From the sequence record NC_024790.1: a stretch of DNA of 64,000 nt; one strand, written 5' to 3'. Below are positions 20,976-35,410 of the stretch, piece by piece. Both the position numbers and the translations under genes were made by a program. The notes under the pieces are model-generated. The model did no database searches, had not been told where the DNA came from, and saw only the letters and a list, made by a program, of their open reading frames with translations. The first letter of the stretch is position 1; each line of letters starts with the position of its first letter. The stretch comes from Escherichia phage vB_EcoP_PhAPEC7.

Positions 20976-22286
20976 ATGTTTTCCAAACCTACCAAAGCCC
21001 CATTGAACCAGGGGCAAGAAGCGGTTGCGAAGGAGTTCTTCGACTTCCTGCTCGACCCTAATGCCTCAGAATTCAATATTAGTGGACCTGGGGGAACTGG
21101 TAAGACATTCCTGATGTCGCACCTTATTGATGACACTATGCCTGCATATATGGAAACCTGTTCTCTGATGGGAACCAAGCCTCTGTATAACGAAGTTGTC
21201 ATGACAGCGACCACGAACAAAGCTGCTGAAGTTCTGGCTCAAGCTACAGGGCGTCCAACGTCTACCTATCATTCCTTCCAGGGGCTGATTGTTAAGAATG
21301 ACTTTAAGACTGGTGAGGCTAATGTTGTACCGTCTAAGTCATTCACCATTAAGAAGAACAAGATTATCTTCGTAGATGAAGCATCCATGATTGACCGTCA
21401 GTTACTTAAGTATGCTCGTGAAGGTACTCACCAGTGCAAACTGGTATTCGTGGGTGATGCTTCCCAGCTTCTGCCTGTTAAAGAGAGTAAGTCTCCAGTG
21501 TATGCAGGTAATATCCCAACACACTATCTGACTGAACAGATGCGTACCGATACACCAGAACTCAAGGCATTGCATCAGCAATTGCGTGATACGGTGGAAG
21601 GTAAGACAGGCTTCCTGCCTATTAAATGTATTCCAGGCATCATTGACTGGGTACAGGAGGAAGAGATGGAGAAACTGGTTCTCAGTCACTTCACTCAACC
21701 CACCAATAGTCGTATTGTTGCTTACACAAATGACCAGGTTATTAATTACAATAACTACATTCGTGAAGCTAATGGCTACGTGGGTGAATACTCCATTGGT
21801 GAGCAGCTTGTTTCTAACTCAGCCGTTCGCTTGGGTGTGGATGACCGTCTGTCTATCGAGCAGGACGTAAAACTTATCGACCAGGATAGTAGTACTCGCA
21901 TGATTAAAGTTACAGGTGACCTGGAACTAGAAGTCCGTGATAGTACTCTAGACCTTGGTTATGGTGGTATTGTTAGTGAAGTTCCAATTCCTACCGACCC
22001 AGACTACTTCAACCGTTTGGTTAAGTGGTTAGGTAAAGAAAAGAACTGGGAACCATACTTCCGTCTTAAAGAAACCATTCCAGACCTTCGTGCTACACAT
22101 GCATGTACTGTTCATAAATCACAAGGCTCTACTTACGACACAATCTTCATTGACGCAAATGACCTCTCAAGCTGTCGCCAACCTGATATGGTTGCCCGTC
22201 TGCTTTACGTCGCTGTGTCTCGTGCTCGTAAGCGTGTAGTGTTCTATGGCAATCTTGCCAGTAAGTATGGTGGTCTAACTTTCTAA
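20976..22286 (+). CDS. Superfamily 1 DNA helicase (Dda/RecD-like, 436 aa)
   Basis: Walker A GPGGTGKTF, Walker B IIFVDEASM, C-terminal VAVSRARKRVVFYG. Confidence 0.7.
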   Translation: MFSKPTKAPLNQGQEAVAKEFFDFLLDPNASEFNISGPGGTGKTFLMSHLIDDTMPAYMETCSLMGTKPLYNEVVMTATTNKAAEVLAQATGRPTSTYHSFQGLIVKNDFKTGEANVVPSKSFTIKKNKIIFVDEASMIDRQLLKYAREGTHQCKLVFVGDASQLLPVKESKSPVYAGNIPTHYLTEQMRTDTPELKALHQQLRDTVEGKTGFLPIKCIPGIIDWVQEEEMEKLVLSHFTQPTNSRIVAYTNDQVINYNNYIREANGYVGEYSIGEQLVSNSAVRLGVDDRLSIEQDVKLIDQDSSTRMIKVTGDLELEVRDSTLDLGYGGIVSEVPIPTDPDYFNRLVKWLGKEKNWEPYFRLKETIPDLRATHACTVHKSQGSTYDTIFIDANDLSSCRQPDMVARLLYVAVSRARKRVVFYGNLASKYGGLTF

Positions 22287-22296
22287 GGGAGGGTAT

Positions 22297-22827
22297 ATGC
22301 CTCAGATTGGTTCAGCGACTATTGGTCAGGTTGCCAATAGTAGTGAGATAGTCAAGCACCTGTTCTTAGCAGAACTAGTTCGTCTTGATGGTGTGTTAAA
22401 TGGCATTATTGATAAGAATGATCGTATCAATGGTGTAGACGTATCGGCTGGATTCCTTCATCAAGGAGAGTTCTATCAGCGTTCTAATGCTTCCAGACCC
22501 CCAACCTATGGTGAACGATTAACGCTTAATCCAGAACTCTGGCCTGCAATGGACAAGTATCTGAAAGCCTCCAGTCGTCTGATTATGGAAGTACACCTTG
22601 TGAACCAGACTGTATATCGACTGGTTCGTGGTTGTATGTCCTATCAGGATGTACGTGATGCTCTACCCGAATGTCTGGTAGCACAAGACCAGACTGGTCA
22701 GTACAAAGGGCTACCCCGTACTCGTGAAGCAGCTTGGACTCTTGCTGGCGATGCTATGGCAATCAAACAGTATGAGAAGATTCTACCTTCTATTGAGTAC
22801 TATGCAGCTTCACATTTGATTTTCTAA
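22297..22827 (+). CDS. Hypothetical protein (176 aa)
   Basis: ORF with GGGAGGG upstream. Confidence 0.45.
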   Translation: MPQIGSATIGQVANSSEIVKHLFLAELVRLDGVLNGIIDKNDRINGVDVSAGFLHQGEFYQRSNASRPPTYGERLTLNPELWPAMDKYLKASSRLIMEVHLVNQTVYRLVRGCMSYQDVRDALPECLVAQDQTGQYKGLPRTREAAWTLAGDAMAIKQYEKILPSIEYYAASHLIF

Positions 22828-22836
22828 GGTAAAGCT

Positions 22837-24507
22837 ATGCGTTACATCACCTCTCAGGATACTGGTAAGTATCCTATTGCTATCCTCGGTCATCAAATCC
22901 GAAGGGAGGAGATGATTAAAACCTACCTGCTGCCTTATGACCTAAGCATGGAAGATTTCATCTTCCTTGAACTTCATTCTGCCCCCGGCAAGAAGAAAAC
23001 TCCTGCAAGGGAGATTAAGGAGTTCATTCAGCAGGAACTGCAACAAGTACTGGATGATGCAGAGACTCAGTACATTATCTGTACCGATTCTGATTACTTT
23101 AAAATACTGACTAAAGAAGCTAAAGCAGAGGCTAACCTCGGCTATGTTTGTGACTCAGTATGGGGTAAGCAGAAGGTTATCTATACACCTAGCTACAGAC
23201 AGGTCTTTTATGATCCACCTGTAGTGAAAGCTAAGATTGCTCAGGGTATGGATGCATTACTTAACCACATTCGTGGGCAGTATGCTGAACCAGGACAGGG
23301 AATCATTGAGTTTGAAGCCTATCCGGATACACCAGAAAAGATTAAAGCCTGGCTAGACCAGTTGCTTGAGATGAATAAGCCTCTGGCTATAGACATCGAA
23401 TCATTCGGTTTAAAGCACTATAACGCTGGTATAGGGACGATTACGTTCTGTTGGAGTAAGACACAAGGTATAGCCTTTAATGTGGACTACGAGCCAATTA
23501 AGGGGGCTACTGAAGCACCCTATGGGCGTATCAACAGGAATGATGTTGTTCGTAACCTGTTACGTGAGTTCTTCATTAAGTACACTCAACGGCAGATGTA
23601 TCACAACATTAGCTATGACGTGTACGTGCTTATCTATCAGTTATTCATGGATAACCTGATTGATACGGAAGGCTTACTGCACGGCATGGAAATCATGCTA
23701 CGTAATTGGGACTGTACTAAGTTAATTACCTATCTGGCTACTAACAGCTGTGCCGGTAATCACCTTAGTCTGAAAGAACAGGCTCAGGAATATGCTGGTA
23801 ACTATGCTCAGGATGACATTAAAGACATTCGTCTTATTCCTAATGAGCAACTGTTACGCTACAACCTCATTGATGGTTTGTGTACGTGGTACACCTACGA
23901 GAAGCACTGGGATACTCTCATTGCTGATGACCAATTAGATGTTTACAACAATATCTTTAAACCAGCCTGTGAAGACATTATTCAGATGCAGTTAACCGGT
24001 ATGCCCATGAATATGGAAACCGTTAACCAAGTAGCTGAGGAGATGGAAACTGACAGGAACCAGGCTCTGAAAACTATTCGTGAGTCTAAGCTCATGAAGA
24101 ACTTCACCCTGATGCTTCGTCAGGAATGGGTAGACGATAAGAATGCTAAGCTAAAGAAGAAGCAAGTAACACTGGCTGATTGTGACATAGTGTTTAATCC
24201 TAATTCAGGGCCACAATTACAGAAACTGTTATTTGATTACATTGGCTTACCGGTTCTTGGTCTTACTAAGAGCAAGCAACCTGCTACTGACGGAGACACT
24301 ATTAAAGCACTGCGTACACATACGCAGAGTGAAGATGTTAAGGAACTGCTCAATGCACTTATCGACTATAAACTCGTGGATAAGATTATCACTAGTTTTA
24401 TACCAGCTTTCAGGAATGCCCAGCCGGGGCCGGATGGCTGGCACTACCTATTCGGCAACCTCAATCTTGGAGGCACAGTCTCCGGTAGGCTATCGGCTTC
24501 AGAGCCT
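22837..24507 (+). CDS. DNA polymerase I-like (family A), exon 1
   Basis: Ends in ...TVSGRLSASEP, matching Pol I TGRLSSxDP immediately before PNLQNIP; continues in-frame at 25214 after intron removal. Confidence 0.75.
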
Positions 24508-25213
24508 AAAATAAATTGGGCTATTTAAACCATGTGAATTCAGGGGAAACCCAGACCGGGCAATCCTGAGCCAAATCAACCATACCTGCCTTAGGAGGCA
24601 CATGATGGATATCAAGAATCTGTACGAGAATACTGACCTATCTCAAGCAGAAATATCAAAGCGTTTGGGTATTAATTACAAAAAAGTCTCTAAATATATT
24701 AGGGAGAACTACAGTAAAGAATACCGCCAAAGCAGAAATGCAAAGTCTTACCGACGCTCCAAGCTGGGGAAAAATAACCCCATGCTCGGTAAATTCGGCA
24801 AAGACCATCACAACTACAAAGGTTTAGTATCCGATAGTAAGGGCTACTTAATGGTACTTAAACCCGATTGGTATACTGCACGCAAAGGTAGCAAACATGT
24901 TTTTGCTCACCATGTAGTGGTATGTGAGGCACTTAATATCAGTGAAATACCTAAGGGCTGGTGTGTGCACCATTGTGATGAAAATCCATACAACAACGAC
25001 TTTGATAATCTTGTATTGCTAAGTGTTCCTGACCACGCTCGGTTACACTCAGCATTGAAAGGTGCAACGACTATCTCGAAAGAGAGTACACTCATGTGGG
25101 TGGAAGCGCATGGCACGCCTTACTATCTGGCGTGATGATATAGTCTGCTCTGCATAGGAATATGCAGCAGTCGAAAGACGGGCATGGATTAACGACCCAT
25201 GCTGAACAACAGG
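24508..25213 (+). mobile_element. Group I self-splicing intron (706 nt) carrying an HNH homing endonuclease gene
   Basis: Splits the conserved PNLQ(N/T)IP codons; 5' exon ends in U pairing with G of guide GGGCT (24518-24522) to give a 5-bp P1; intron ends in G; P/Q-like core 24535-24574; R-like GACTA 25069-25073 and S-like GATATAGTC 25137-25145. Confidence 0.7.
24602..25135 (+). CDS. HNH homing endonuclease (intron-encoded, 177 aa)
   Basis: HNH motif HHCDENPYNNDFDNLVLLSVPDHARLH; strong AGGAGG RBS; sits inside the intron. Confidence 0.8.
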   Translation: MMDIKNLYENTDLSQAEISKRLGINYKKVSKYIRENYSKEYRQSRNAKSYRRSKLGKNNPMLGKFGKDHHNYKGLVSDSKGYLMVLKPDWYTARKGSKHVFAHHVVVCEALNISEIPKGWCVHHCDENPYNNDFDNLVLLSVPDHARLHSALKGATTISKESTLMWVEAHGTPYYLA

Positions 25214-26122
25214 AATCTACAAACAATTCCATCCGGTTCTAAATATGCCAAGAAGATTAAGAAATGCTTCGAAGCCCCACCTGGCTGGGTATTTTGCGGT
25301 TTGGACTTCGCCTCGCTGGAAGACAGAATATCTGCATTGACTACTAAAGACCCCCAGAAACTTAAGGTATATACCGATGGTTACGATGGTCATAGTCTTC
25401 GTGCGTATGCTTACTTTGGTGAGCAGATGCCAGACATTGTAGACACAGTTGAGTCAATTAATTCTATTCAGACGAAGTATAAGCACCTGCGTAGTGATTC
25501 TAAAGCCCCAACCTTCTTGCTTACCTATGGTGGTACGTATATGGGCTTGATGAAAAACTGTGGCTTCTCAGAAGAGAAAGCTAAAACAACAGAGAAACGT
25601 TATCACGATCTCTATGTAGTTAGTGATATGTGGGTTCAGGCTAAGCTAGATGAAGCTGCCAAGACTGGTTATGTAACTGCTGCATTTGGTTTGAGAGTGC
25701 GTACTCCTTTACTGGCTCAGGTATTACGTGGGACATGTAAGACTCCATATGAAGCAGAAGCTGAAGGTAGAACTGCTGGCAATGCTTTAGGGCAAAGCTG
25801 GTGTCTATTGAATAACCGTGCTGGTTCAGAGTTTATGCGTAAAGTCAGAGCCAGTGAGTTCAGGTTAGATATACGCCCTAGTATTCACATTCATGATGCT
25901 CAATACTTCATGATTCGTGACAACATGGATACCTTGCAGTACACGAACAAGCATTTGGTTGAAGCCGTTAACTGGCAAGACCATCCTGATATTGCTCATC
26001 CAGAAGTTGGTTTGGGTGGGGAACTATCCTTGTTTTACCCAACGTGGGCTAACGAGATTGAGATTCCAAATCACGCTACCCCAGAAGAAGTTAATCAAAT
26101 AATTCAAAAGGCATTCGCATGA
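25214..26122 (+). CDS. DNA polymerase I-like (family A), exon 2
   Basis: Starts NLQTIP; motif A DFASLEDRI, motif B RSDSKAPTFLLTYGG, motif C IHIHDA. Confidence 0.75.
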   Translation, partial: NLQTIPSGSKYAKKIKKCFEAPPGWVFCGLDFASLEDRISALTTKDPQKLKVYTDGYDGHSLRAYAYFGEQMPDIVDTVESINSIQTKYKHLRSDSKAPTFLLTYGGTYMGLMKNCGFSEEKAKTTEKRYHDLYVVSDMWVQAKLDEAAKTGYVTAAFGLRVRTPLLAQVLRGTCKTPYEAEAEGRTAGNALGQSWCLLNNRAGSEFMRKVRASEFRLDIRPSIHIHDAQYFMIRDNMDTLQYTNKHLVEAVNWQDHPDIAHPEVGLGGELSLFYPTWANEIEIPNHATPEEVNQIIQKAFA

Positions 26123-26424
26123 CTAAAAGTACTAAAGAAACCGCCGTCAAAAAATATCATTGGATGGTGGCAGCACAGGTAATCTTCCAGCTTCCTAAAG
26201 CTGATGATGGTTCCCTGCTTACCATGAATACAATGCTGCTCACTGACGAACCTCATGTGACTTATAAAGATTTGGCCCGTGTTAATCACTCTCTGAAGAT
26301 TAGTCTGGACCAGCGTTTCGACACCTCAGTTGACTTGAAAGACATTGTTTATCTATCCATCAATAACCTGGGTCTGATGTCTGAACCAGAGTTCCAAGCA
26401 AACATGATTCCCAAGGGGGAATAA
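26119..26424 (+). CDS. Hypothetical protein (101 aa)
   Basis: Coupled ORF (ATGA overlap). Confidence 0.4.
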   Translation: MTKSTKETAVKKYHWMVAAQVIFQLPKADDGSLLTMNTMLLTDEPHVTYKDLARVNHSLKISLDQRFDTSVDLKDIVYLSINNLGLMSEPEFQANMIPKGE

Positions 26425-26891
26425 TGACTAAGCTCTCCGGTGGCCTTAATAACTACTATGTAGTTCCAATTAAGAATCCCCAACGGAAAGAGCAAGAGCC
26501 ATATCAAGCAGAGTGTGAGGATATTATCCAAGCACTTGGCATGACCTTCGATGAAGGTTGTGCCTTTAAAGCTCTATGGCGAAATGCTGCTGCCCGTATG
26601 GGTAATGGTAAACCTGGTAACAAAGCCCTGTATGACTGTGAGAAGCTGGTTCATTACGCTAATCGTATTCTAGCTAAAGAAAGGTTAGCAGATGAATTAC
26701 TTAACCGGAATAACACCACTATTGGAAGATGCTGGCATTACCCAGGAAAGGATAAACCTTACATAACAACGAACTTTCAATTCATTGAGGTAGCATACAA
26801 GGGTGAGTTGGATAATGTAGTCAGCTATAACTTCGATGAGATAGATGGTATTCGCTGGAACCAAGTTCACAGATACAGGATTACTTACTGA
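26424..26891 (+). CDS. Hypothetical protein (155 aa)
   Basis: Coupled ORF. Confidence 0.45.
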   Translation: MTKLSGGLNNYYVVPIKNPQRKEQEPYQAECEDIIQALGMTFDEGCAFKALWRNAAARMGNGKPGNKALYDCEKLVHYANRILAKERLADELLNRNNTTIGRCWHYPGKDKPYITTNFQFIEVAYKGELDNVVSYNFDEIDGIRWNQVHRYRITY

Positions 26892-27871
26892 TGAAGATAA
26901 CCAACAACCATGATGTCTCGCTGGCCCTGGCTGTATGGCTATTACATGACGAATATGATTACGTAGACAATCCTAAGTACCTGTCTGCTACTACATTGCT
27001 TAAGCCTATTAAGCAAATCGTCATGAAGCATCGTGTAGATTTTAGTGACCAGTCAATTGATGTTATGGATTTCGTCTCCACATCAATGGGTACTGGCTTA
27101 CATGACTCTATTGAGAAAGCCTGGAAGCTAGGTCATAAGACTGCATTGAAGAAGCTAGGTTATCCTCAGCGAGTAATTGATGCAGTAGTCATTAACCCAA
27201 CCAAAGCAGACTTTGCTGCTAACCCTGACCTTATCCCAATCTACATTGAACAGCGTGGAACCAAGGTAGTTAAGGGTTGGACCATCGGTGGTAAGTTTGA
27301 CATCGTAACGGAAGGTCTGTTGCAAGACTTCAAGTCTACCTCAACCTATTCTTGGGTTGCTGGTTCCCGTGATGATGAACACAAGATGCAAGGCAGCTTG
27401 TACCGTTGGATTCACAACGACATCATTACTGAGGATGTAATTCGTATTAACTACATCTTCACCGACTTCATGAAACACATGGCTAATAGCAATCCAAACT
27501 ATCCTGCTAATCGTATTATGCATAAGGATATTCCGTTGCTGTCTGCTGAGAAGACTGAACGTTGGGTGGAAGAGAAGATTCACTTCATCGAAAAGTACTG
27601 GGATGCACCTGAAGAGGAAATCCCTGAATGTACTGATGAGGAGTTGTGGCGAACAGAGCCACAGTTCAAATACTTCTCTGATGCTTCTAAGGTAGATGTA
27701 CCTGGAGCCAGGAGTACCAAAAACTTTGACGATATGGCATCTGCCCGTATCTTCATGGCTGAAAAAGGTGGCAAGGGTGCTATCAAGGTCGTGGAGGGGC
27801 AGGTTAAACGTTGTTTATATTGCCCTGTCGCGTCCATTTGCAAACAAAGAGAGAGATATTTTCCATCATGA
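26891..27871 (+). CDS. PD-(D/E)XK nuclease, Cas4/RecB-like exonuclease (326 aa)
   Basis: D...QDFK nuclease-like motif and C-terminal CxxC...C cluster (CLYCPVASIC). Confidence 0.5.
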   Translation: MKITNNHDVSLALAVWLLHDEYDYVDNPKYLSATTLLKPIKQIVMKHRVDFSDQSIDVMDFVSTSMGTGLHDSIEKAWKLGHKTALKKLGYPQRVIDAVVINPTKADFAANPDLIPIYIEQRGTKVVKGWTIGGKFDIVTEGLLQDFKSTSTYSWVAGSRDDEHKMQGSLYRWIHNDIITEDVIRINYIFTDFMKHMANSNPNYPANRIMHKDIPLLSAEKTERWVEEKIHFIEKYWDAPEEEIPECTDEELWRTEPQFKYFSDASKVDVPGARSTKNFDDMASARIFMAEKGGKGAIKVVEGQVKRCLYCPVASICKQRERYFPS

Positions 27872-30021
27872 GTATTGACCTTACCGGAGTAGTGCACCAT
27901 CCAGCGATTGAAGAAATCGTAGATGTGCTCTGCAATAAAACCCAGAATAACGACCGGGGATTCTTCCGTGTCGAAGTGGCCTACTTCTTGGCTAAAATGG
28001 CATCCTGCATGGGTGCAACCATCGTAACTAAAGACCGTGGTGACCTGCCAGTAAACATCTACGCTATGGCGTTGGCTACATCTGGTTTCGGTAAAGGTCA
28101 CTCGGTAAATATCATTGAAGACGGGTTCATGACTGGCTTCCGTAAGCGTTTTATGGAAGACACCATGCCCGTCATTGCAAATGACCGTCTATGGAAGATT
28201 GCTAACGAACGTGCTGCTCGTCAAGGCACAGACCAGAATGATGAGTTCGATAAAGTTGAAGCAGAGTATAAACGTGCTGGGGCATTCCCATTCACATTCG
28301 ACTCTGGTACAGCACCTGCTGTAAAACAGCTTCGTCACAAACTACTTATGGCTGGTTGTGGTGCTATTAACTTACAGATTGATGAGATTGGTTCCAACCT
28401 CATTGCCAACGTTGAAGTGCTTAACCTGTTCCTTGAGTTGTATGACCAGGGGAAAGTAAAACAGAAGTTAACCAAGAACACTGCTGAAAGTGTTCGTGGT
28501 GAAGAACTGGATGGTAAGACTCCCGCTAACCTGCTGCTGTTCGGTACTCCGAGTAAGCTGCTGGATGGTGGTCAGACTGAAGACCAGTTCTATGACTTCC
28601 TCGATACAGGGTATGCACGTCGTTGTCTGTTTGCCATTGGGCACTTAGACAAGCGAGCACATGCAACGCTGACTCCGGAAGAAATCTACCGTAACCTGAT
28701 TAAGCAGGATAACGTTCAGTCTCTTGGTAAGTGGGCTAACCACTTCCATAGTCTGGCTGACCCAAACCTGTTTGGCTTTAAGATGATTGTGGAAGATGCA
28801 GTGGGTATTGCTCTGATTACTTACAAAATTGATTGTGAGAAAAAAGCAGAAGCTATGGCTGACCACGAAGAAATTCGTAAGGCTGAAATCTCTCATCGTT
28901 ACTTCAAAGCTCTTAAACTGGCAGGTGCACTGGCGTTTGTTGATCAGAGTTCATTCATTGAGATGTCTCACCTTAAACAAGCAATCCTGCTAGTAGAAGA
29001 ATCCGGGGCAGCATTCCAAGGTATTCTCAATCGTGAGAAAGCCTATGTGAAGCTGGCTAAGTACATTGCATCCGTAGGTAAAGAAGTGACTCATGCTGAC
29101 TTGCTGGAGTCGTTGCCGTTCTATAAGAGTGGCAATGCAGCTCGCAATGAGATGATGACTCTTGCTACAGCATGGGGTTACAAACAGCACATCATTATTA
29201 AGAAGACATTCAATGAAGGTATTGAGTTCTTCCGTGGTGAGACTCTGAAAGAGACTAACACCAATGAGATGCTGGTGGCATATAGTGATAGCTTTGCTTA
29301 TGACTATGTTGGTGAACGTGTACCGTTTGACCAGCTACATGTATTAACCCAAGCTCACGGTATGCACTGGGTGAACCATCACATGAAGAATGGGCATCGT
29401 TCTGAAGAGAACGTTATCCCAGGATTTAACATGATTGTTATTGACTGTGATGGTGGAGTACCACTGCATACGTGCCATGAGCTGATGAAGGAATATAAGT
29501 TCATGACCTATACCACTAAGCGTCATACCGACGAAGAGAACCGCTTCCGTCTGATTATTCCAATGAACTATGAGTTACACCTCGATACCGAGGAATACAA
29601 AGAGTTCATGAATAACGTTATGGCTTGGCTACCATTCGAAACGGATGAGTCTGCTAACCAACGAGCCAAGAAGTGGATGTCCTGTGAGACTGGTTCCTAT
29701 CATTACAACCTTGATGCGAATCTGTTGGATGTACGTGACTTTATTCCTCGTACCAGTAAGAACGAGCAGTTCCAGAACCAGATGAAGGAAGTTCAGTCGT
29801 TGGACAATCTGGAGCGTTGGTTCGCTGGTCGTATTGCCTCCGGTAATCGTAATAATCAAATGATTAAGTACGCACTGGCATTAGTAGACAGTGGTTGGGA
29901 CTTTGCTCAAGTACAGCAAGCCGTCTACTCATTCAATAAGAAACTGGCTAATCCATTACCAGATGATGAATTGAATGCAACTGTAATGGTCACCGTGGCT
30001 AAACGCTTCGCTGGCAAGTAA
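27868..30021 (+). CDS. Putative DNA primase / replication protein (717 aa; start trimmed from 27811)
   Basis: C-terminal VIDCDGG DxD-like motif reminiscent of primase-polymerase; position matches the N4 primase; ATGA overlap with upstream gene. Confidence 0.4.
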   Translation: MSIDLTGVVHHPAIEEIVDVLCNKTQNNDRGFFRVEVAYFLAKMASCMGATIVTKDRGDLPVNIYAMALATSGFGKGHSVNIIEDGFMTGFRKRFMEDTMPVIANDRLWKIANERAARQGTDQNDEFDKVEAEYKRAGAFPFTFDSGTAPAVKQLRHKLLMAGCGAINLQIDEIGSNLIANVEVLNLFLELYDQGKVKQKLTKNTAESVRGEELDGKTPANLLLFGTPSKLLDGGQTEDQFYDFLDTGYARRCLFAIGHLDKRAHATLTPEEIYRNLIKQDNVQSLGKWANHFHSLADPNLFGFKMIVEDAVGIALITYKIDCEKKAEAMADHEEIRKAEISHRYFKALKLAGALAFVDQSSFIEMSHLKQAILLVEESGAAFQGILNREKAYVKLAKYIASVGKEVTHADLLESLPFYKSGNAARNEMMTLATAWGYKQHIIIKKTFNEGIEFFRGETLKETNTNEMLVAYSDSFAYDYVGERVPFDQLHVLTQAHGMHWVNHHMKNGHRSEENVIPGFNMIVIDCDGGVPLHTCHELMKEYKFMTYTTKRHTDEENRFRLIIPMNYELHLDTEEYKEFMNNVMAWLPFETDESANQRAKKWMSCETGSYHYNLDANLLDVRDFIPRTSKNEQFQNQMKEVQSLDNLERWFAGRIASGNRNNQMIKYALALVDSGWDFAQVQQAVYSFNKKLANPLPDDELNATVMVTVAKRFAGK

Positions 30022-30077
30022 GCAAACAGGAGTCTTTCTTTGGTTTGAAGGACTCCTAAACTAAACGAGGAAAAATA

Positions 30078-30410
30078 ATGTCCGAAGAAATCTCCAACGA
30101 TATGAACACTCAGCTAATCCTGATTGCAGGATTCTCAGCTAGTGGTAAATCAGCATCACTGCGTAATATCCGGAACCAGGAACGCTGGCTGTATCTGAAT
30201 ACAGAAGCGGGTAAACGTCTACCTTTCCGTAATAAGTTCAACACCTACAATATCGAAGACCCATACCAGATTTGGGAAGCATTCGATGTTGCATCTCCTG
30301 GTGGTGAAATGGCAGACGATGTTGATGGCATCATTATCGACTCTGCTACCTTCATGATGGACATGCTGGAATCCCAGTATGTATTACCATCTGCTAATAC
30401 CCAAAAGGCT
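30078..30410 (+). CDS. RecA-like/Sak4-like ATPase, exon 1
   Basis: Walker A IAGFSASGKSA, Walker B GIIIDSATF; the TAA at 30411 is read as the first intron codon. Confidence 0.5.
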
Positions 30411-31182
30411 TAACTACTAAGGCCCGTTAGTCAGTAATGATTAATGATAACTGATTGAATTCAGGGAAACCCCTAACGTAAAGACGAGGGCAATCCTGAG
30501 CCAAGACTTAATCTTTCTCCGGTTTTTATTAACGGAGTTACAAACATGAGTAAGAAAAGATTCGGTAATGAATTACATCCTCTGTATTACACATGGTTAA
30601 CCATTAAACAGAGATGTGACAACCCTAAGCACGCTAGTTATAAAAACTATGGGGCTAGGGGGATAACTAGAGCAGAAGAGTTCTCTGACTTCAAAGTGTT
30701 TGCTGCCTATCTAGAATCATTAGATGGTTACGCAGACAGGGAGAGACTGGGTCTTACTTTAGATAGAATAGGTGGTTCACTTGGCTATGTGCCAGGAAAT
30801 CTGAGATAGGCAACTAGAACAACTCAGACCATTAATTCCAGAAAAAGAAGAACCAGTAAAGCTACCTACTTAGGGATAGGTTTAAACACCACTAAGAAAA
30901 AATGGTCAGCAAGAATCTGCAACGGTAATGAAAGAATCTTTGTAGGTAATTTTGATTCCGAGATTGAAGCTCTGAAAGCTAGAAATGCCTACATTATTGA
31001 GCATGGTTTACCTCATGCCATTCAAAAGATTAAGTAAGGTGCAACGACTATCCAGTAATGGAGTAGGGCAGAAGCTAATGCTGCTCGAAGCGGTCAGCAT
31101 CCTATCGTAATTAACGAGGATGAAGATATAGTCTGGACTGCATGGAAACATGCAGATGCAGGTAATGCTGCTGGGAGTGTAG
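30411..31182 (+). mobile_element. Group I intron (about 772 nt) carrying a disrupted HNH-AP2-type homing endonuclease ORF; 3' boundary approximate
   Basis: P/Q core 30453-30504 near-identical to intron 1; 4-bp P1 between exon GGCU (30407-30410) and guide GGCC (30421-30424) at the same 10-nt spacing; R-like 31038-31052, S-like 31126-31134; 3' splice site placed after G 31182 by frame and a 3-bp P10 (alternative about 31209). Confidence 0.6.
30546..31037 (+). pseudogene. HNH-AP2 family homing endonuclease-like ORF with in-frame TAG at 30807-30809
   Basis: N-terminal YYTWLTIKQRCDNPKHASYKNYGARGI..., then DRIGG...GNLR-stop-ATRT where the family has NxRWAT; the same frame continues into an AP2-like domain (KKWSARICNGNERIFVGNFDSEIEALKARNAY) to TAA 31035-31037. 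Confidence 0.55.
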
Positions 31183-31626
31183 TTGCGTACACTCTTGAAC
31201 GTATCGTGGGGAGACTTTGCACAGTTCTTTAAAGTACTGCTGCAACAGAAAGTCGTTAAGTTTGGTAAGCCGGTAATCATTACTGCCCATGCCAAAGATG
31301 AACTCGACGAAGCTGCTGGTGTAATGAAAACATTCATCCCGGTCAAGGGTTCACTGAAGAACAATGGCCTTGAGGCTTACTTTTCTACAGTGGTTTACGC
31401 AGAACGTGTAGACATTAAAGAACTGGAGAAGTACGGCAACAAGATGCTTGATATTACGGAAGAAGAACGTGACTTAGGCTATAAGCACGTATTCCAGACA
31501 CGTCCAACCAAGAAGTCTGTTGGTAAACGTCTTCGCTCACCAATGGGTATGTTCGATAAGTCTCAGACTTACATTGATAATGATGCCCAAAAACTCTTAG
31601 ACCATCTGGCTGAATACTACGCTTAA
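31183..31626 (+). CDS. RecA-like/Sak4-like ATPase, exon 2 (start approximate)
   Basis: In-frame continuation after intron removal; the track start at 31183 is a TTG. Confidence 0.45.
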   Translation: MRTLLNVSWGDFAQFFKVLLQQKVVKFGKPVIITAHAKDELDEAAGVMKTFIPVKGSLKNNGLEAYFSTVVYAERVDIKELEKYGNKMLDITEEERDLGYKHVFQTRPTKKSVGKRLRSPMGMFDKSQTYIDNDAQKLLDHLAEYYA

Positions 31627-31666
31627 GCGTTTGCCTGGTTGTTAATCACTTATTAGGAAAAATATT

Positions 31667-32470
31667 ATGTCACTGTTCGGTAACTTGAAAGAAAAGACCA
31701 AAAACGTTGAAGCTGCAAAAGACTCCCTTGGTGGTGGTGGCTTCGGTGCAAAAGAATCTGATATCTATACCGGTACTGTAAAAGTAGCTTACGTAGGTAA
31801 AGCTGACTCTGGTGCAGACTGGATGCAGTTAATCATCGAAAACCTGAAAGGTTCTGACGGCAATGATGCTGGTGAGTTCCGTGCCCAGGTATACTTTACT
31901 TCCGGTAATACTAAGGGCAATAAGCCAACTTACGAGAAGAACGGTAAAGAGTACTTCCTGCCTGGTTACACTGTCATTAATGACATGATGCTTATGGCTA
32001 CTGGTTGTGAACTGCCAGATGCAGACTTCGAAGAGAAGATTGTTAAAGTCTATGACTTCGACCTGAAAGCTGAAACCAATAAGTCTGTCATGGTTCCAGT
32101 TGATCTGGTTGGTCAGACTGTTACCTTCGCTCTGGAAAAGGTTCTGGAAGCTAAACAGGTTAAAGGTGACAACGGTTACGTTGACTCCGGAGAAACTCGT
32201 GAAGTAAACGAGATTCAGAAAGTGTTTCACCCGGAACTGCTGGTCACAGTCGTCGAGGCTCAGGAAGCAGAGAAGGCTGAGAAAGAACTGACTCCGGAAC
32301 TGGCTGTATTCTATGCAGCATGGTTGGAAAAGAACAAAGGTAAAACCCGTGATAAGACCAAGGGTTCTGCTGGTGGTAATGGTAAAGGTGGCTTGCCTCC
32401 TAAACCAGGTGCAGGTGCTGGCACAGGTACTACTCCTGCCGGTGGTAAATCACTGTTCGGTAAGAAGTAA
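31667..32470 (+). CDS. Single-stranded DNA-binding protein-like (267 aa)
   Basis: Size and position match N4 SSB (about 265 aa); Gly-rich flexible C-terminal tail. Confidence 0.5.
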   Translation: MSLFGNLKEKTKNVEAAKDSLGGGGFGAKESDIYTGTVKVAYVGKADSGADWMQLIIENLKGSDGNDAGEFRAQVYFTSGNTKGNKPTYEKNGKEYFLPGYTVINDMMLMATGCELPDADFEEKIVKVYDFDLKAETNKSVMVPVDLVGQTVTFALEKVLEAKQVKGDNGYVDSGETREVNEIQKVFHPELLVTVVEAQEAEKAEKELTPELAVFYAAWLEKNKGKTRDKTKGSAGGNGKGGLPPKPGAGAGTGTTPAGGKSLFGKK

Positions 32471-33051
32471 TGAAAATCCCAATTGTCGGTGCAGACATTA
32501 GTCTCCGCAATTGGGGATTGGCTCGTGGGATGCTGGACATTGAGTCTGGCGTCTTCGAGCAGGTCGAACTTAAACTGGTTCAAACTGAAGTTGACCACAA
32601 CAAACAAGTTCGAACCAACTCCAAAGATATACAAGCCTCTCATGATTTGTTTCTTGGTTGTGAGGAATGGTTACGGTCTGCTAAAGCAGTATTCGTAGAA
32701 GTACCAGTAGGCTCTCAGTCTGCTAATGGTATGAAGTCCTATGGCGTATGCGTAGGATTAATCGGTGCATTTCGTGCATTGGGTTGTCCAATCTTTGAAG
32801 TATCCCCAATTGAAAACAAACTTGCACTGGTAGGTGATAAAACTGCATCCAAAGACACGATGATTCGTGCTGCTCATGCCATCTATCCTGAAGCCAACTG
32901 GCTCATGGATAAGAAGGGCAAGCTTCTGAATAAGAATGAGCACTTAGCTGATGCAATCGGTGCAATCCACGCTGGTGTAAATCTCCCAGCTTTCCAGAAT
33001 CTCCTTAAATTAATAGAGACACAATATGCAAATCGTTCTGAATCAGTCTGA
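32470..33051 (+). CDS. RuvC-like Holliday junction resolvase (193 aa)
   Basis: N-terminal IVGADIS acidic motif and C-terminal EHLADAIGAIHAG resembling the RuvC DAxDAxAIA motif. Confidence 0.6.
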   Translation: MKIPIVGADISLRNWGLARGMLDIESGVFEQVELKLVQTEVDHNKQVRTNSKDIQASHDLFLGCEEWLRSAKAVFVEVPVGSQSANGMKSYGVCVGLIGAFRALGCPIFEVSPIENKLALVGDKTASKDTMIRAAHAIYPEANWLMDKKGKLLNKNEHLADAIGAIHAGVNLPAFQNLLKLIETQYANRSESV

Positions 33052-33475
33052 AGTAGAAGCTGCTATTGAAGCTTATGTAAATGAACAAGTTAATCTTGCC
33101 GGGGACATTAATATCCTGGTGAATGCAGATGGTACTGCCACTATTGGTATCAACGAAGAGGTCGGTCATAGTGATGACACTCCACCCTTGGTAGAGAAGA
33201 AGACTCGCCGTCCTCGTAAGAACCCTCAAGAAGCCAAACACCGTCCGGTAGAACCGGAACCGGTTGTTGAGGATGAAGCCGAAGAAGAGGTAAAGGAAGA
33301 AGAAATCCAGACCTCTACTGGTGGACCGAGCGAGAGTTCTACGCCGGAACCTGAAGAAGCAGTAGCTGAACCAGAAGCACAAGAAGAAGTTGTGCAGGAG
33401 GATGTTAAGGCTGAAGAACCAGCAGAGAAACCTGCTGCGAAGCCTTCACTGTTCGCTGGCCTGAAACGTAGTTAA
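33026..33475 (+). CDS. Highly acidic protein with Glu/Pro-rich C-terminal tail (149 aa)
   Basis: C-terminal half is strongly acidic (EEEVKEEEIQ..., PEPEEAVAEPEAQEE). Confidence 0.45.
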   Translation: MQIVLNQSEVEAAIEAYVNEQVNLAGDINILVNADGTATIGINEEVGHSDDTPPLVEKKTRRPRKNPQEAKHRPVEPEPVVEDEAEEEVKEEEIQTSTGGPSESSTPEPEEAVAEPEAQEEVVQEDVKAEEPAEKPAAKPSLFAGLKRS

Positions 33476-33879
33476 TCTGGTAGGTGGCTCAGAAGCTGCT
33501 GCTAGGTGTGGTAGTGTTTATAGTCCTGATGCTATTACTGGTCAGGATTATAGACGTGTCGGCTCCATACATAGCTTTTATCATCACTGTCATTATCCTG
33601 TGGAAATGCAGTGGTAAACACGGTGGTGACAAGCCGCCAGAATAACAACAACCGAACCAGTGGGCTTTAATACTCTCCGAAGTCCATTGGTTCAACCGGG
33701 GTTAATATGAACAAATTTACTATTCACTGGCTCAATGGAAAGGTTAGTTCTTTCATGGGTGGAGAACCTGCTGAAGGAAACAAAGCATTCCACATTGATT
33801 CAGAAGGCTGCAAAATCTTAATACCGTATGTTTGGTATAAAGAGGGTGAAGTTGAAGCATTGAAAAAGAGTAGTTAATA

Positions 33880-35410
33880 TCGTGAAGGGTTCTGTCAGAA
33901 TCCTTTGAGATAGGAACTCCTATCATAACCTTTCTTAACTTAATCTTTGCCGTATGGCACTGACGCTAGGGGTGGCCCCCCATCCGTCAGACAGACTATT
34001 TTAAGAATGGGTTATCTCAGAAAATGTAAAGCAACATTCGGGTTAATCAATGGCCTCTCCCTATAGGGGCCATTTCTGAATCTTAGGCTATATCCCAAAG
34101 GTTAGTATCTTTGGGATAAGGCTTCAGATCCCTTATCAAACTAACTGCTCAATGTTGAGTATATTAATTAACCCAGCCCACTAAGGGGGCGGGAGTTTAA
34201 TGCCGGTAAGCATAAGCCCATCCGACTACAACATCGAAGTGTTAGGTCTTACATGCAATATAGGGTATAAAGGGAGGATTCGTCCCCTCCCTCCTATTAT
34301 GAACTATCGGAGAGTGCATTAGTTGATTAGCTGTGGAAGGTAGGCCGATGTCCACAAGTGTGGCCCAGAGCTAGTGTACTCCCCGATAGTTTTCGTAGCG
34401 ATTATGCGGTTTTTTAGAAACGAACCAATAACATAAATGCAAACGAAGAAGCGTATCTGATGGTCGCCTAACAGCGTAACCTCAGTCAGGAGTGAGTCGT
34501 CCTGATTATCAAACGACCGTGGAGTTCTCCCGTCCATGTATTAGAAACGGGGGACCAACTACCAGTTGCACGAGATGGCTTGATATGTTCAAGTTTGGAC
34601 TAAGTGTGACACCGCTAGATTGGAGGGCTGCTGCGGTAAGCTATAGACTCCAACCGGAGGTTCGAATCCTTCACTGGTAACCAATTCAAAGTAGCACTGG
34701 CTCATATTAGTGGAACTCGAACCCATTGAGCAGACGAGATTAGCTAACTCTCAGTGCTACCCCTAATTGGAAGAATTAAGACGGGTCTGGTGAAGTAGAT
34801 GGGGTTCAATTCCCCCCGGTGGAGTAATCCACTAGCGTGCTTGGTGCACGTATAAGACTTAGTACTGGTGGTTCGATTCCATCCCCCGTTACCTGAAGTC
34901 GCCAGGTACTTATGGCAAACGGGTAGTAACGAACTAGTCATTCGTCAAACGCCCACCCAATTATGAGTCAGCAAGAACGCCTTCACTTAAACTTAAACAA
35001 AAAAGCTTAACGCAATGATTATGTAGGGGTATGTAAGGATTGCGAAGAAGGAGCCAGTTAGAGCCTGGCATGACTCACCTATTATGTCCGCTTAGCTTAG
35101 ACTGGGAAAGCAACCGACTAATAATCGGAAGGTCACTGGTTCAAATCCAGTAGTGGACACCCATTCAGCAGTAACATAGTCCTGATTGCATAGCACTCTA
35201 AAGACAACACTGGTAAGACAGTCCAGTGGCTGCTAATGTATTGTTATTCCCCTCGACGGGAATTTCGCTGGAGAATAGGAACTACTTAAATCCTAGCCTG
35301 AGTATTGCAATATGTGACTATCAATCACGAGAGACGGGACGACCAGACCCCTGAAGCTGGCAATATTGCATATTCATACAAGCCTCCCAGCTATGGGTAA
35401 ATAGTACTAA
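33880..35410 (+). other. Non-coding structured island with tRNA-like elements
   Basis: No RBS-supported ORF; perfect hairpins (for example a 10-bp stem at 34091-34118) and T-arm-like motifs at 34659-34669, 34801-34815, 34870-34880 and 35138-35148. Confidence 0.45.
35086..35159 (+). tRNA. Candidate tRNA (74 nt; anticodon loop CTAATAA, anticodon AAT as parsed)
   Basis: Acceptor GTCCGCT/AGTGGAC (one G-U), D-stem GCTT/AAGC, anticodon stem CCGA/TCGG, T-arm ACTGG-TTCAAAT-CCAGT; CCA not encoded; A34 is unusual. Confidence 0.5.

Follow-up and report, generated by a model that had tools for sequence, protein, structure and literature searches.

The split Sak4-like ATPase gene

We analysed a 64,000-nt stretch of Escherichia phage vB_EcoP_PhAPEC7 (NC_024790.1; hereafter the window), in which the gene for a Sak4-like ATPase is interrupted by what is very probably a mobile group I intron. 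BLAST of positions 30000-31700 and 22000-34000 against phage genomes places the window in an E. coli Gamaleyavirus (G7C/N4-like, Schitoviridae), the closest record overall being PhAPEC5, with 98.4% identity over 93% of the 12-kb query (22000-34000). The split gene, whose counterpart in N4 is gp44, is flanked by the primase and single-stranded DNA-binding protein (SSB) genes; records of relatives name its product 'AAA family ATPase' or 'Sak4-like ssDNA annealing protein'. The locus is made up as follows, with exon 1 taken from the list of open reading frames (ORFs).

30078-30410, plus strand: exon 1 of the Sak4-like/AAA_24 ATPase gene, 111 codons with Walker A and B motifs and the 3' end AAG GCU; collinear with intron-less homologs
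30411-31206, plus strand: predicted group I intron of 796 nt, IA-type, P1 to P9.2 with P7.1 and P7.2, last base the omega-G at 31206 (from intron-less alleles, Rfam RF00028 and covariation)
31207-31626, plus strand: exon 2 of the ATPase gene, 139 codons plus stop, start UGG GGA GAC (W-G-D-F); collinear with intron-less homologs

As stated in the initial annotation of this DNA, the ATPase ORF (30078-30413) is broken by a TAA at 30411-30413 and carries both Walker motifs (A, GFSASGKS; B, GIIIDSAT) in exon 1. The gene had been said to resume near 31183, and 31183-31626 is indeed open in the same frame, but exon 2 itself starts at 31207. Excision of the intron gives a 753-nt ORF of 250 amino acids with the junction NTQKA/WGDFAQ (the slash marks the insertion point here and below), the same length as PhAPEC5 gp51; the spliced protein lines up without a break with those of some 60 relatives that lack the intron, and matches Pfam AAA_24 with E = 6.1e-11.

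Intron boundaries and splice sites

The boundaries were determined by alignment to seven intron-less alleles (PhAPEC5, G7C, phi G17, PBM-2, St11Ph5, pSb-1 and Moonfish), all of which are contiguous across the insertion site and contain an uninterrupted 753-nt gene. The insertion falls between the Ala and Trp codons of the conserved NTQKA/WGDFA segment. Exon 1 ends in CAA AAG GCU, the intron starts with UAACUAC and ends with ACGUAUCG (last bases UAUCG), and exon 2 starts with UGGGGAG at 31207, so that the predicted spliced junction is CAAAAGGCU/UGGGGAGAC (GGCU/UGGGG). The spliced frame is collinear with and equal in length to those of the seven intron-less homologs, with K-A/W-G at the junction.

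Shifting both junctions by one base would yield an identical product. We prefer 30411-31206 because only this placement gives a terminal G together with a last exon U that pairs with G; a U precedes the intron, and both the P1 U.G pair and the terminal G (G31206 here) are found in 8/8 homologous introns. The 5' end first proposed, 30411, was exact, and the 3' alternative of about 31209 came close; 31182, which had been preferred, falls 24 nt too early, because the final 24 intron nucleotides happen to be open in the exon frame. In one metagenome contig (L026, Logan SRR29257533) the homologous intron sits 1 nt further downstream, at GCG U/GG instead of GCU/UGG; there, the U that exon 1 contributes to the U.G pair is also position 1 of the Trp codon, and the guide in P1 is altered to match.

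Ribozyme structure and covariation

The Rfam Intron_gpI model (RF00028) matches the window twice at this locus, with 49.5 bits (E = 2.4e-11) at 30928-31155, aligning P7 to P9, and with 30.9 bits (E = 8.6e-06) at 30401-30670, aligning P1 to P6. The match is split and below threshold because of the 492-nt ORF in between. The copy of the intron in Escherichia phage SP5M, whose ribozyme differs from that of the window by 1 base, scores 58.3 bits over its full length and so exceeds the gathering score of 50. When the whole window was scanned at a laxer E-value, group I signals came up only here and in the DNA polymerase gene. The predicted elements, all on the plus strand, are listed below; pairing and compensatory changes are those of the homologous introns.

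30407-30411 with 30420-30424: P1, exon GGCU and the first intron U paired with the guide AGGCC; U30410.G30421 wobble at the 5' splice site
30427-30444: P2 hairpin, 7 bp with a GUAA loop, present in the minimum free energy (MFE) fold; compensatory changes in 6/7 pairs
30451-30516: 5' core, from the P3 5' strand to the P6a 5' strand (Rfam alignment, pair counts)
30451-30457 with 31091-31097: P3, 100% paired
30461-30465 with 30495-30499: P4, 100% paired
30470-30490: P5/P5a (Rfam alignment)
30500-30502 with 31038-31040: P6, 100% paired
30506-30515 with 31026-31035: P6a, a perfect 10 bp that closes the ORF loop; 10/10 pairs compensatory; the 3' strand overlaps the last ORF codons
31026-31206: 3' core, from the P6a 3' strand to P9.2 (Rfam 49.5 bits, local helices of the MFE fold)
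31046-31050 with 31129-31133: P7, 100% paired, 2 compensatory pairs
31051-31062: P7.1, 100% paired, compensatory changes
31067-31085: P7.2, 100% paired, compensatory changes
31099-31121: P8, in the 3' core
31138-31155: P9, with a GAAA loop; 5/7 pairs compensatory
31158-31171: P9.1, 100% paired
31173-31196: P9.2, followed by the terminal G at 31206

Covariation was assessed in two alignments: A1 brings together 9 diverse phage introns, and A2 the 8 homologs that share this insertion site in Sak4-like genes. Slid 3' partners served as controls, with 500 shuffles in addition for A2. In A2, 94.0% of cells pair, as opposed to 34-41% in the slid controls, and 45/82 pairs are changed on both sides, a result that none of the 500 shuffles reaches; P1, P3, P4, P6, P7, P7.1, P7.2, P9 and P9.1 are all 100% paired. 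The more diverse A1 gave 90.1% paired cells against 32-40% when slid, with 38/59 pairs compensatory. The conserved catalytic core from P3 to P8, including the P3/P7 pseudoknot, is present, its P3, P4, P6 and P7 fully paired and carrying compensatory changes; in L026, for example, the P7 strands GACUA/UAGUC have become GAUCA/UGAUC. P1 keeps its U.G pair in 8/8 members of A2, while 3 of its 5 pairs covary between exon and guide. An unconstrained MFE fold of the ORF-deleted intron recovered all local helices; the P3 and P7 pairings are missing from it, as expected for a long-range helix and a pseudoknot strand, respectively.

The presence of P7.1 and P7.2 between P7 and the P3 3' strand makes the architecture IA-type. 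This architecture is usual for phage introns.

Distribution among phages

The initial annotation had suggested a survey of homologous ATPase genes for presence or absence of the intron, and both states occur. The same intron is found in Escherichia phages vB_EcoP_SP5M (MT682708/NC_070869), vB_EcoP_PW8 (PQ362703) and RudolfBernhard Bas96 (PQ850623), in the same gene, at the same site and with the same 796-nt length; these copies are 97.0-98.6% identical to that of the window and differ by at most 2 bases in the ribozyme. These 3 are the deposited gamaleyaviruses that carry it, and about 60 other gamaleyavirus records match in the exons only. The Bas96 record gives the Sak4-like coding sequence as a two-piece join, and its depositors therefore recognised the split; the SP5M and PW8 records give separate ORFs. 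The word intron is absent from the BASEL paper describing Bas96, and we found no description of this intron in the literature searched; the N4-like phage intron that is described, in Vibrio phage pVa5, lies in thymidylate synthase.

Through homologs of the intron ORF, we located a homologous intron at the KA/WG site in seven N4-like metagenome contigs (L020, L021, L022 and L024-L027), with the gene order of the window: primase, exon 1, endonuclease ORF, exon 2, SSB. Their cores are 71-82% identical to that of the window (three members measured) and their endonucleases 43-83%. The host ATPases are 88-94% identical to that of the window in L020 and 46-56% in L021 and L022, and the peripheral helices differ. 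Because the same KA/WG site is occupied even where the ATPase is only 46-56% identical, these comparisons indicate that the intron is a member of a site-specific intron family of N4-like phages.

The putative intron-encoded endonuclease

The loop of P6a holds the intron ORF, with a hairpin directly upstream.

30546-31037, plus strand: putative homing endonuclease gene, a pseudogene here, situated in the loop of P6a; relatives have 163 codons (aligned: SP5M, Bas96 and PW8; PHROG 374)
30517-30537, plus strand: hairpin CUCCG...CGGAG, whose 3' arm holds a GGAG Shine-Dalgarno sequence 8 nt before the endonuclease AUG

The ORF matches PHROG 374 with E = 2.4e-38; Pfam gave no significant match (AP2 only, E = 0.58) and NCBIfam none. 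An AP2 DNA-binding domain is present. At the position of the catalytic His that acts as general base on the first strand, 44 homologs have an invariant Arg (D73-R74), and Y81, N85, Q94 and N97 of the nuclease motif are likewise invariant among them. The predicted product is a His-less HNH-like nuclease fused to an AP2 domain.

In SP5M, PW8 and Bas96 the 163-codon gene is intact. In the window it is not: a TAG at 30807-30809 (TGG in the three relatives) replaces the nearly invariant W88, removing the nuclease-motif helix and the whole AP2 domain, and there are three more private amino-acid changes, D76G (30772), which lies inside the conserved LDRID motif, A95T and E143K. Among the four gamaleyavirus copies, 3/304 ribozyme positions and 28/492 ORF positions vary. 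The ORF changes of the other copies are mostly synonymous (7 synonymous to 0 nonsynonymous, and 15 to 2), whereas 4 of the 7 private ORF substitutions of the window copy, including the stop, are nonsynonymous; its ribozyme has no private change. The stop and D76G, in a copy whose ribozyme is free of private changes, fit decay of the homing gene after the intron had settled, or a sequencing error.

A hairpin equivalent to that at 30517-30537 is predicted directly upstream of the AUG in 7/7 family members folded, with differing stem sequences. It covers the purine-rich ribosome-binding stretch in 6 of the 7; in L024 the trailing GGAGG is only partly paired. By hiding the ribosome-binding site, such a hairpin would stop ribosomes from disturbing the folding of the ribozyme.

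A free-standing homolog of the endonuclease, 45% identical, is found in Vibrio phage 1.097.O (MG592470; positions 1783-2974 of our locus L023), where it lies ahead of SSB and overlaps an intact 243-aa AAA_24 gene at that gene's end. That intact Sak4-like gene reads AAGGCT/TGGGG at the insertion point, which is the sequence of the spliced junction.

We raise as a tentative and rather doubtful proposal that the endonuclease represents an uncharacterised lineage of homing enzymes, a His-less D-R...Y...N...N beta-beta-alpha-metal fold with AP2, which would be tied to the N4-like Sak4-SSB locus and is encoded by an intron within the Sak4-like gene of many phages, and that the pair in Vibrio phage 1.097.O could record a free-standing endonuclease colonising, or leaving, an intron at the same site. 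Under this proposal, the window would display later stages of the cycle, namely homing with co-conversion and then decay of the endonuclease gene.

Probable traces of homing in exon 1

Between the window and PhAPEC5, the exons show 14 differences. Eight of them are clustered in the 25 nt at the 3' end of exon 1 (binomial P = 3.7e-9); exon 2, with its 420 nt, has 1. Within this 25-nt patch the window equals SP5M and Bas96.

30386-30410, plus strand: candidate co-conversion tract, the last 25 nt of exon 1, SP5M/Bas96-like; the rest of both exons is PhAPEC5-like

Exon 1 ends in GGCT in all four gamaleyavirus alleles with the intron, as opposed to GCC, GCA, GCG or AGT in intron-less alleles, and the changes closest to the junction are exactly those required for P1. 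This pattern makes a strong but not conclusive case for a co-conversion tract left by homing into a PhAPEC5-like genome; it falls short of conclusive because the patch sites are polymorphic in the genus.

The DNA polymerase intron

The second group I signal of the window corresponds to an intron in the DNA polymerase gene, which serves as a comparator.

24508-25213, plus strand: DNA polymerase group I intron of 706 nt, boundaries from the intron-less G7C; HNH_3 ORF at 24602-25135

It is inserted between the Pro and Asn codons of SEP/NLQTIP, and its ORF belongs to Pfam HNH_3 and PHROG 7545. The region is 99% identical to PhAPEC5 (1301-nt query), with an ORF-less core that is 100% identical, and the PhAPEC5 record mentions its polymerase intron. 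In one checked case, Klebsiella phage RCIP0039, the polymerase intron is 85% identical to that of the window and occupies the same site (SNP/NLQ, hence SxP/NLQ). The comparisons made place it in the DNA polymerase intron family of T7-like phages. The Sak4 intron falls outside this family: its 69-73% core identity to the polymerase introns of T7-like phages (Autographiviridae) is background for the class, and its closest relatives are found in other N4-like phages, whose Sak4-like genes carry introns at this same site.

In other gamaleyaviruses (ST4, SP5M and PD205), the polymerase gene is split further downstream by a different, ORF-bearing insertion. That of ST4 (L007), the only such locus scanned, gave no Rfam group I match at E <= 0.001.

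Alternative explanations

The initial annotation had taken the two introns of the window as paralogs, one having arisen from the other by transposition in this phage or its immediate lineage, and the resemblances that prompted this are real. They include identical core strings of 15-35 nt. Among the strings shared are GAATTCAGGG..GGGCAATCCTGAGCCAA at 30457-30504 versus 24537-24574, close to the positions first given, the R-like GGTGCAACGACTATC at 31038-31052 versus 25061-25075, as reported there, and the S-like GATATAGTC at 31125-31133 versus 25137-25145, which is present but 1 nt from its first placement. The P1 spacing is also the same, the G of the U.G pair being intron nucleotide 11 in both, and both introns are IA-type with P7.1/P7.2 and lie in replication genes. 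Yet the ORF-less cores are only 69% identical overall, a value that among 12 comparators ranks 11th for the Sak4 intron and 8th for the polymerase intron, and their summed BLASTN score is 76 bits, the ribozymes sharing just three short patches (37, 35 and 34 bits). The Sak4 core scores higher elsewhere: against the polymerase intron of Ralstonia phage BOESR1 (137-151 bits), the primase/helicase region of an oyster-associated phage (149), rV5-like terminase (142-147), a Vibrio terminase intron (124), Alteromonas AD45 (90-122) and Pseudomonas KIL (88-114). In the comparison that gave the 76 bits, BOESR1 scores 137 bits, the Vibrio terminase intron 124 and three others 86-90. The polymerase core, for its part, is 79-86% identical to polymerase introns of T7-like and related phages (186-232 bits for most of those listed), whose hosts are Klebsiella, Acinetobacter, Pseudomonas, Providencia and Pectobacterium. 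The intron ORFs give no BLASTP alignment at E <= 100 and have different best PHROG families (374 for Sak4, 7545 for polymerase); the only PHROG common to both, phrog_4578, is matched weakly (E = 6.1e-11 and 7.1e-04). Alignment and structural modelling of both introns, as the initial annotation had advised, revealed kinship at class level only, with differences in P2 and in ORF placement: P2 is lacking in the polymerase intron, whose ORF extends over the P7, P3' and P8 strands of the 3' core, whereas the Sak4 ORF lies in the P6a loop. The two introns are not nearest neighbours in any comparison made and occur in different gamaleyaviruses, none of those deposited covering both (best coverage of the 12-kb query, 93%). 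Stretches of 33-60 nt from the shared regions recur at 92-100% identity in Staphylococcus, Ralstonia, Vibrio and Rhizobium phage introns and at 88% in Bacillus phages, and the shared strings are best described as the P3-P4-P6, P7 and J8/7 core that is conserved throughout a large class of phage introns. A paralogous origin is therefore not borne out and, in our judgement, highly improbable; the 69% identity, the closer outside relatives, the unrelated ORFs, the structural differences and the different phages argue instead for a separate acquisition of each intron.

Slightly less probable still is that the two ATPase ORFs are naturally separate genes, or that a dead, non-splicing insertion sits in a dispensable gene and no intact ATPase is made. 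The separate ORFs in the GenBank records of SP5M and PW8 would agree with this. Homologs that are naturally separate genes would have spoken for it, but the seven intron-less homologs are single, uninterrupted genes of 250 aa. Moreover, exon 2 lacks both an ATG and a separate ribosome-binding site at 31207, and its differences lie almost all at third codon positions (18/19 in comparison with Bas96, 35/38 with PW8), because of which we regard exon 2 as being under purifying selection. The ribozyme core is almost invariant while the ORF drifts, and exon and guide covary in P1, which also counts against this reading. We rejected intein and group II intron readings on three grounds: a stop codon lies in frame at the 5' junction, the core is that of a group I intron and shows covariation, and the homologs are contiguous.

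We therefore return to a mobile IA-type group I intron at 30411-31206 (P7.1/P7.2, P9.1, P9.2) in a Sak4-like ATPase gene, a reading in which we have high confidence; the initial call of a second group I intron in this RecA-like gene (Sak4-like, Pfam AAA_24) is supported by Rfam, the boundaries and covariation alike. Several points weigh on the other side. Splicing and homing themselves are inferred; what the sequences show directly is where the intron begins and ends, its covarying structure, which phages carry it, the patch in exon 1 and the lesions of the ORF. The best Rfam score in the window is 0.5 bit under the gathering score, in a match split in two, and inspection by eye found no convincing P10 that would join the first bases of exon 2 to the guide region. 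In the nuclease domain, an invariant Arg takes the place of the canonical catalytic His and the activity is putative, the TAG in the ORF may be a sequencing error, and the upstream sites of the patch, being polymorphic in the genus, could be accounted for by ordinary recombination beside the intron.

Proposed mechanism and significance

After transcription, the RNA would fold into the ribozyme, the last exon nucleotides GGCU pairing with the guide GGCC to form P1 with its U.G wobble. An external guanosine would attack the 5' splice site, and the freed 3'-OH of exon 1 would then attack behind the last base of the intron, G31206; GGCU would thereby be ligated to UGGGG and the 250-aa ATPase frame restored. 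In mixed infections, the HNH-like/AP2 nuclease encoded in the P6a loop would cut intron-less alleles, and repair would copy the intron and a short flanking exon stretch into the cut allele. The phage of the window appears to be a PhAPEC5-like genome that gained the intron by such homing and in which the endonuclease gene later decayed (W88stop, D76G), with no damage to the ribozyme. The intron is well-formed and probably still splices; if the endonuclease gene has decayed, it should no longer home by itself.

For annotation, the 'hypothetical' ORFs 30078-30413 and 31183-31626 become one gene, join(30078..30410,31207..31626), and the intron ORF should be labelled a pseudogene; the SP5M and PW8 records need the same gene-join correction. 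The element itself is of an ordinary kind; three deposited genomes already contain it, one of them (Bas96) with an implicit annotation, and it leaves knowledge of group I introns unchanged. It does show the homing cycle of N4-like phages in a compact natural case, with sporadic presence, a short co-conversion patch, an intact ribozyme and a decaying endonuclease gene, and the two introns of this one phage genome would have come from different sources. More interesting as by-products are the family to which the endonuclease belongs, the free-standing homolog and the decayed state of the window copy.

Rfam at its gathering threshold reports only one tRNA, and no intron, in the whole window. The tRNA gene lies at 35085-35163 (Rfam, 62.4 bits) and was classified by ARAGORN as tRNA-Ile with the unusual anticodon AAT; a paper on a related phage reports an alanine tRNA gene in that genome, which may lie at this or at another locus.

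Comparison with known systems

Set beside the T4 td, nrdB and sunY introns and other phage introns of subgroup IA2 (Twort, SPO1/SP82), the intron of the window likewise resides in a conserved nucleotide-metabolism or replication gene of a virulent phage, has P7.1/P7.2 and loops an endonuclease ORF out of a peripheral helix (P6a in td). Twort-like Staphylococcus phages have an intron within, or adjacent to, the gene for the terminase large subunit, and a 33-nt stretch of P4-P5 is 100% identical between that intron and the one studied here. Terminase regions elsewhere also hold group I introns above the Rfam threshold, three in Vibrio phage 1.187.O (L013, 1154-2455) and two in Escherichia phage RudolfGeigy (L011, 255-1117); one of those in Vibrio phage 1.187.O has a P4-P6 segment almost identical to that of the Sak4 intron.

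The hairpin over the ribosome-binding site of the intron ORF resembles the translation control of I-TevI in the T4 td intron. The enzymes themselves differ, I-TevI being a GIY-YIG endonuclease and the window ORF a predicted His-less HNH-like domain with AP2, and so do the host genes. Among the closest known systems for the predicted nuclease are I-HmuI, the HNH nicking endonuclease of the SPO1 polymerase intron (PDB 1U3E), and the restriction enzyme PacI (PDB 3M7K).

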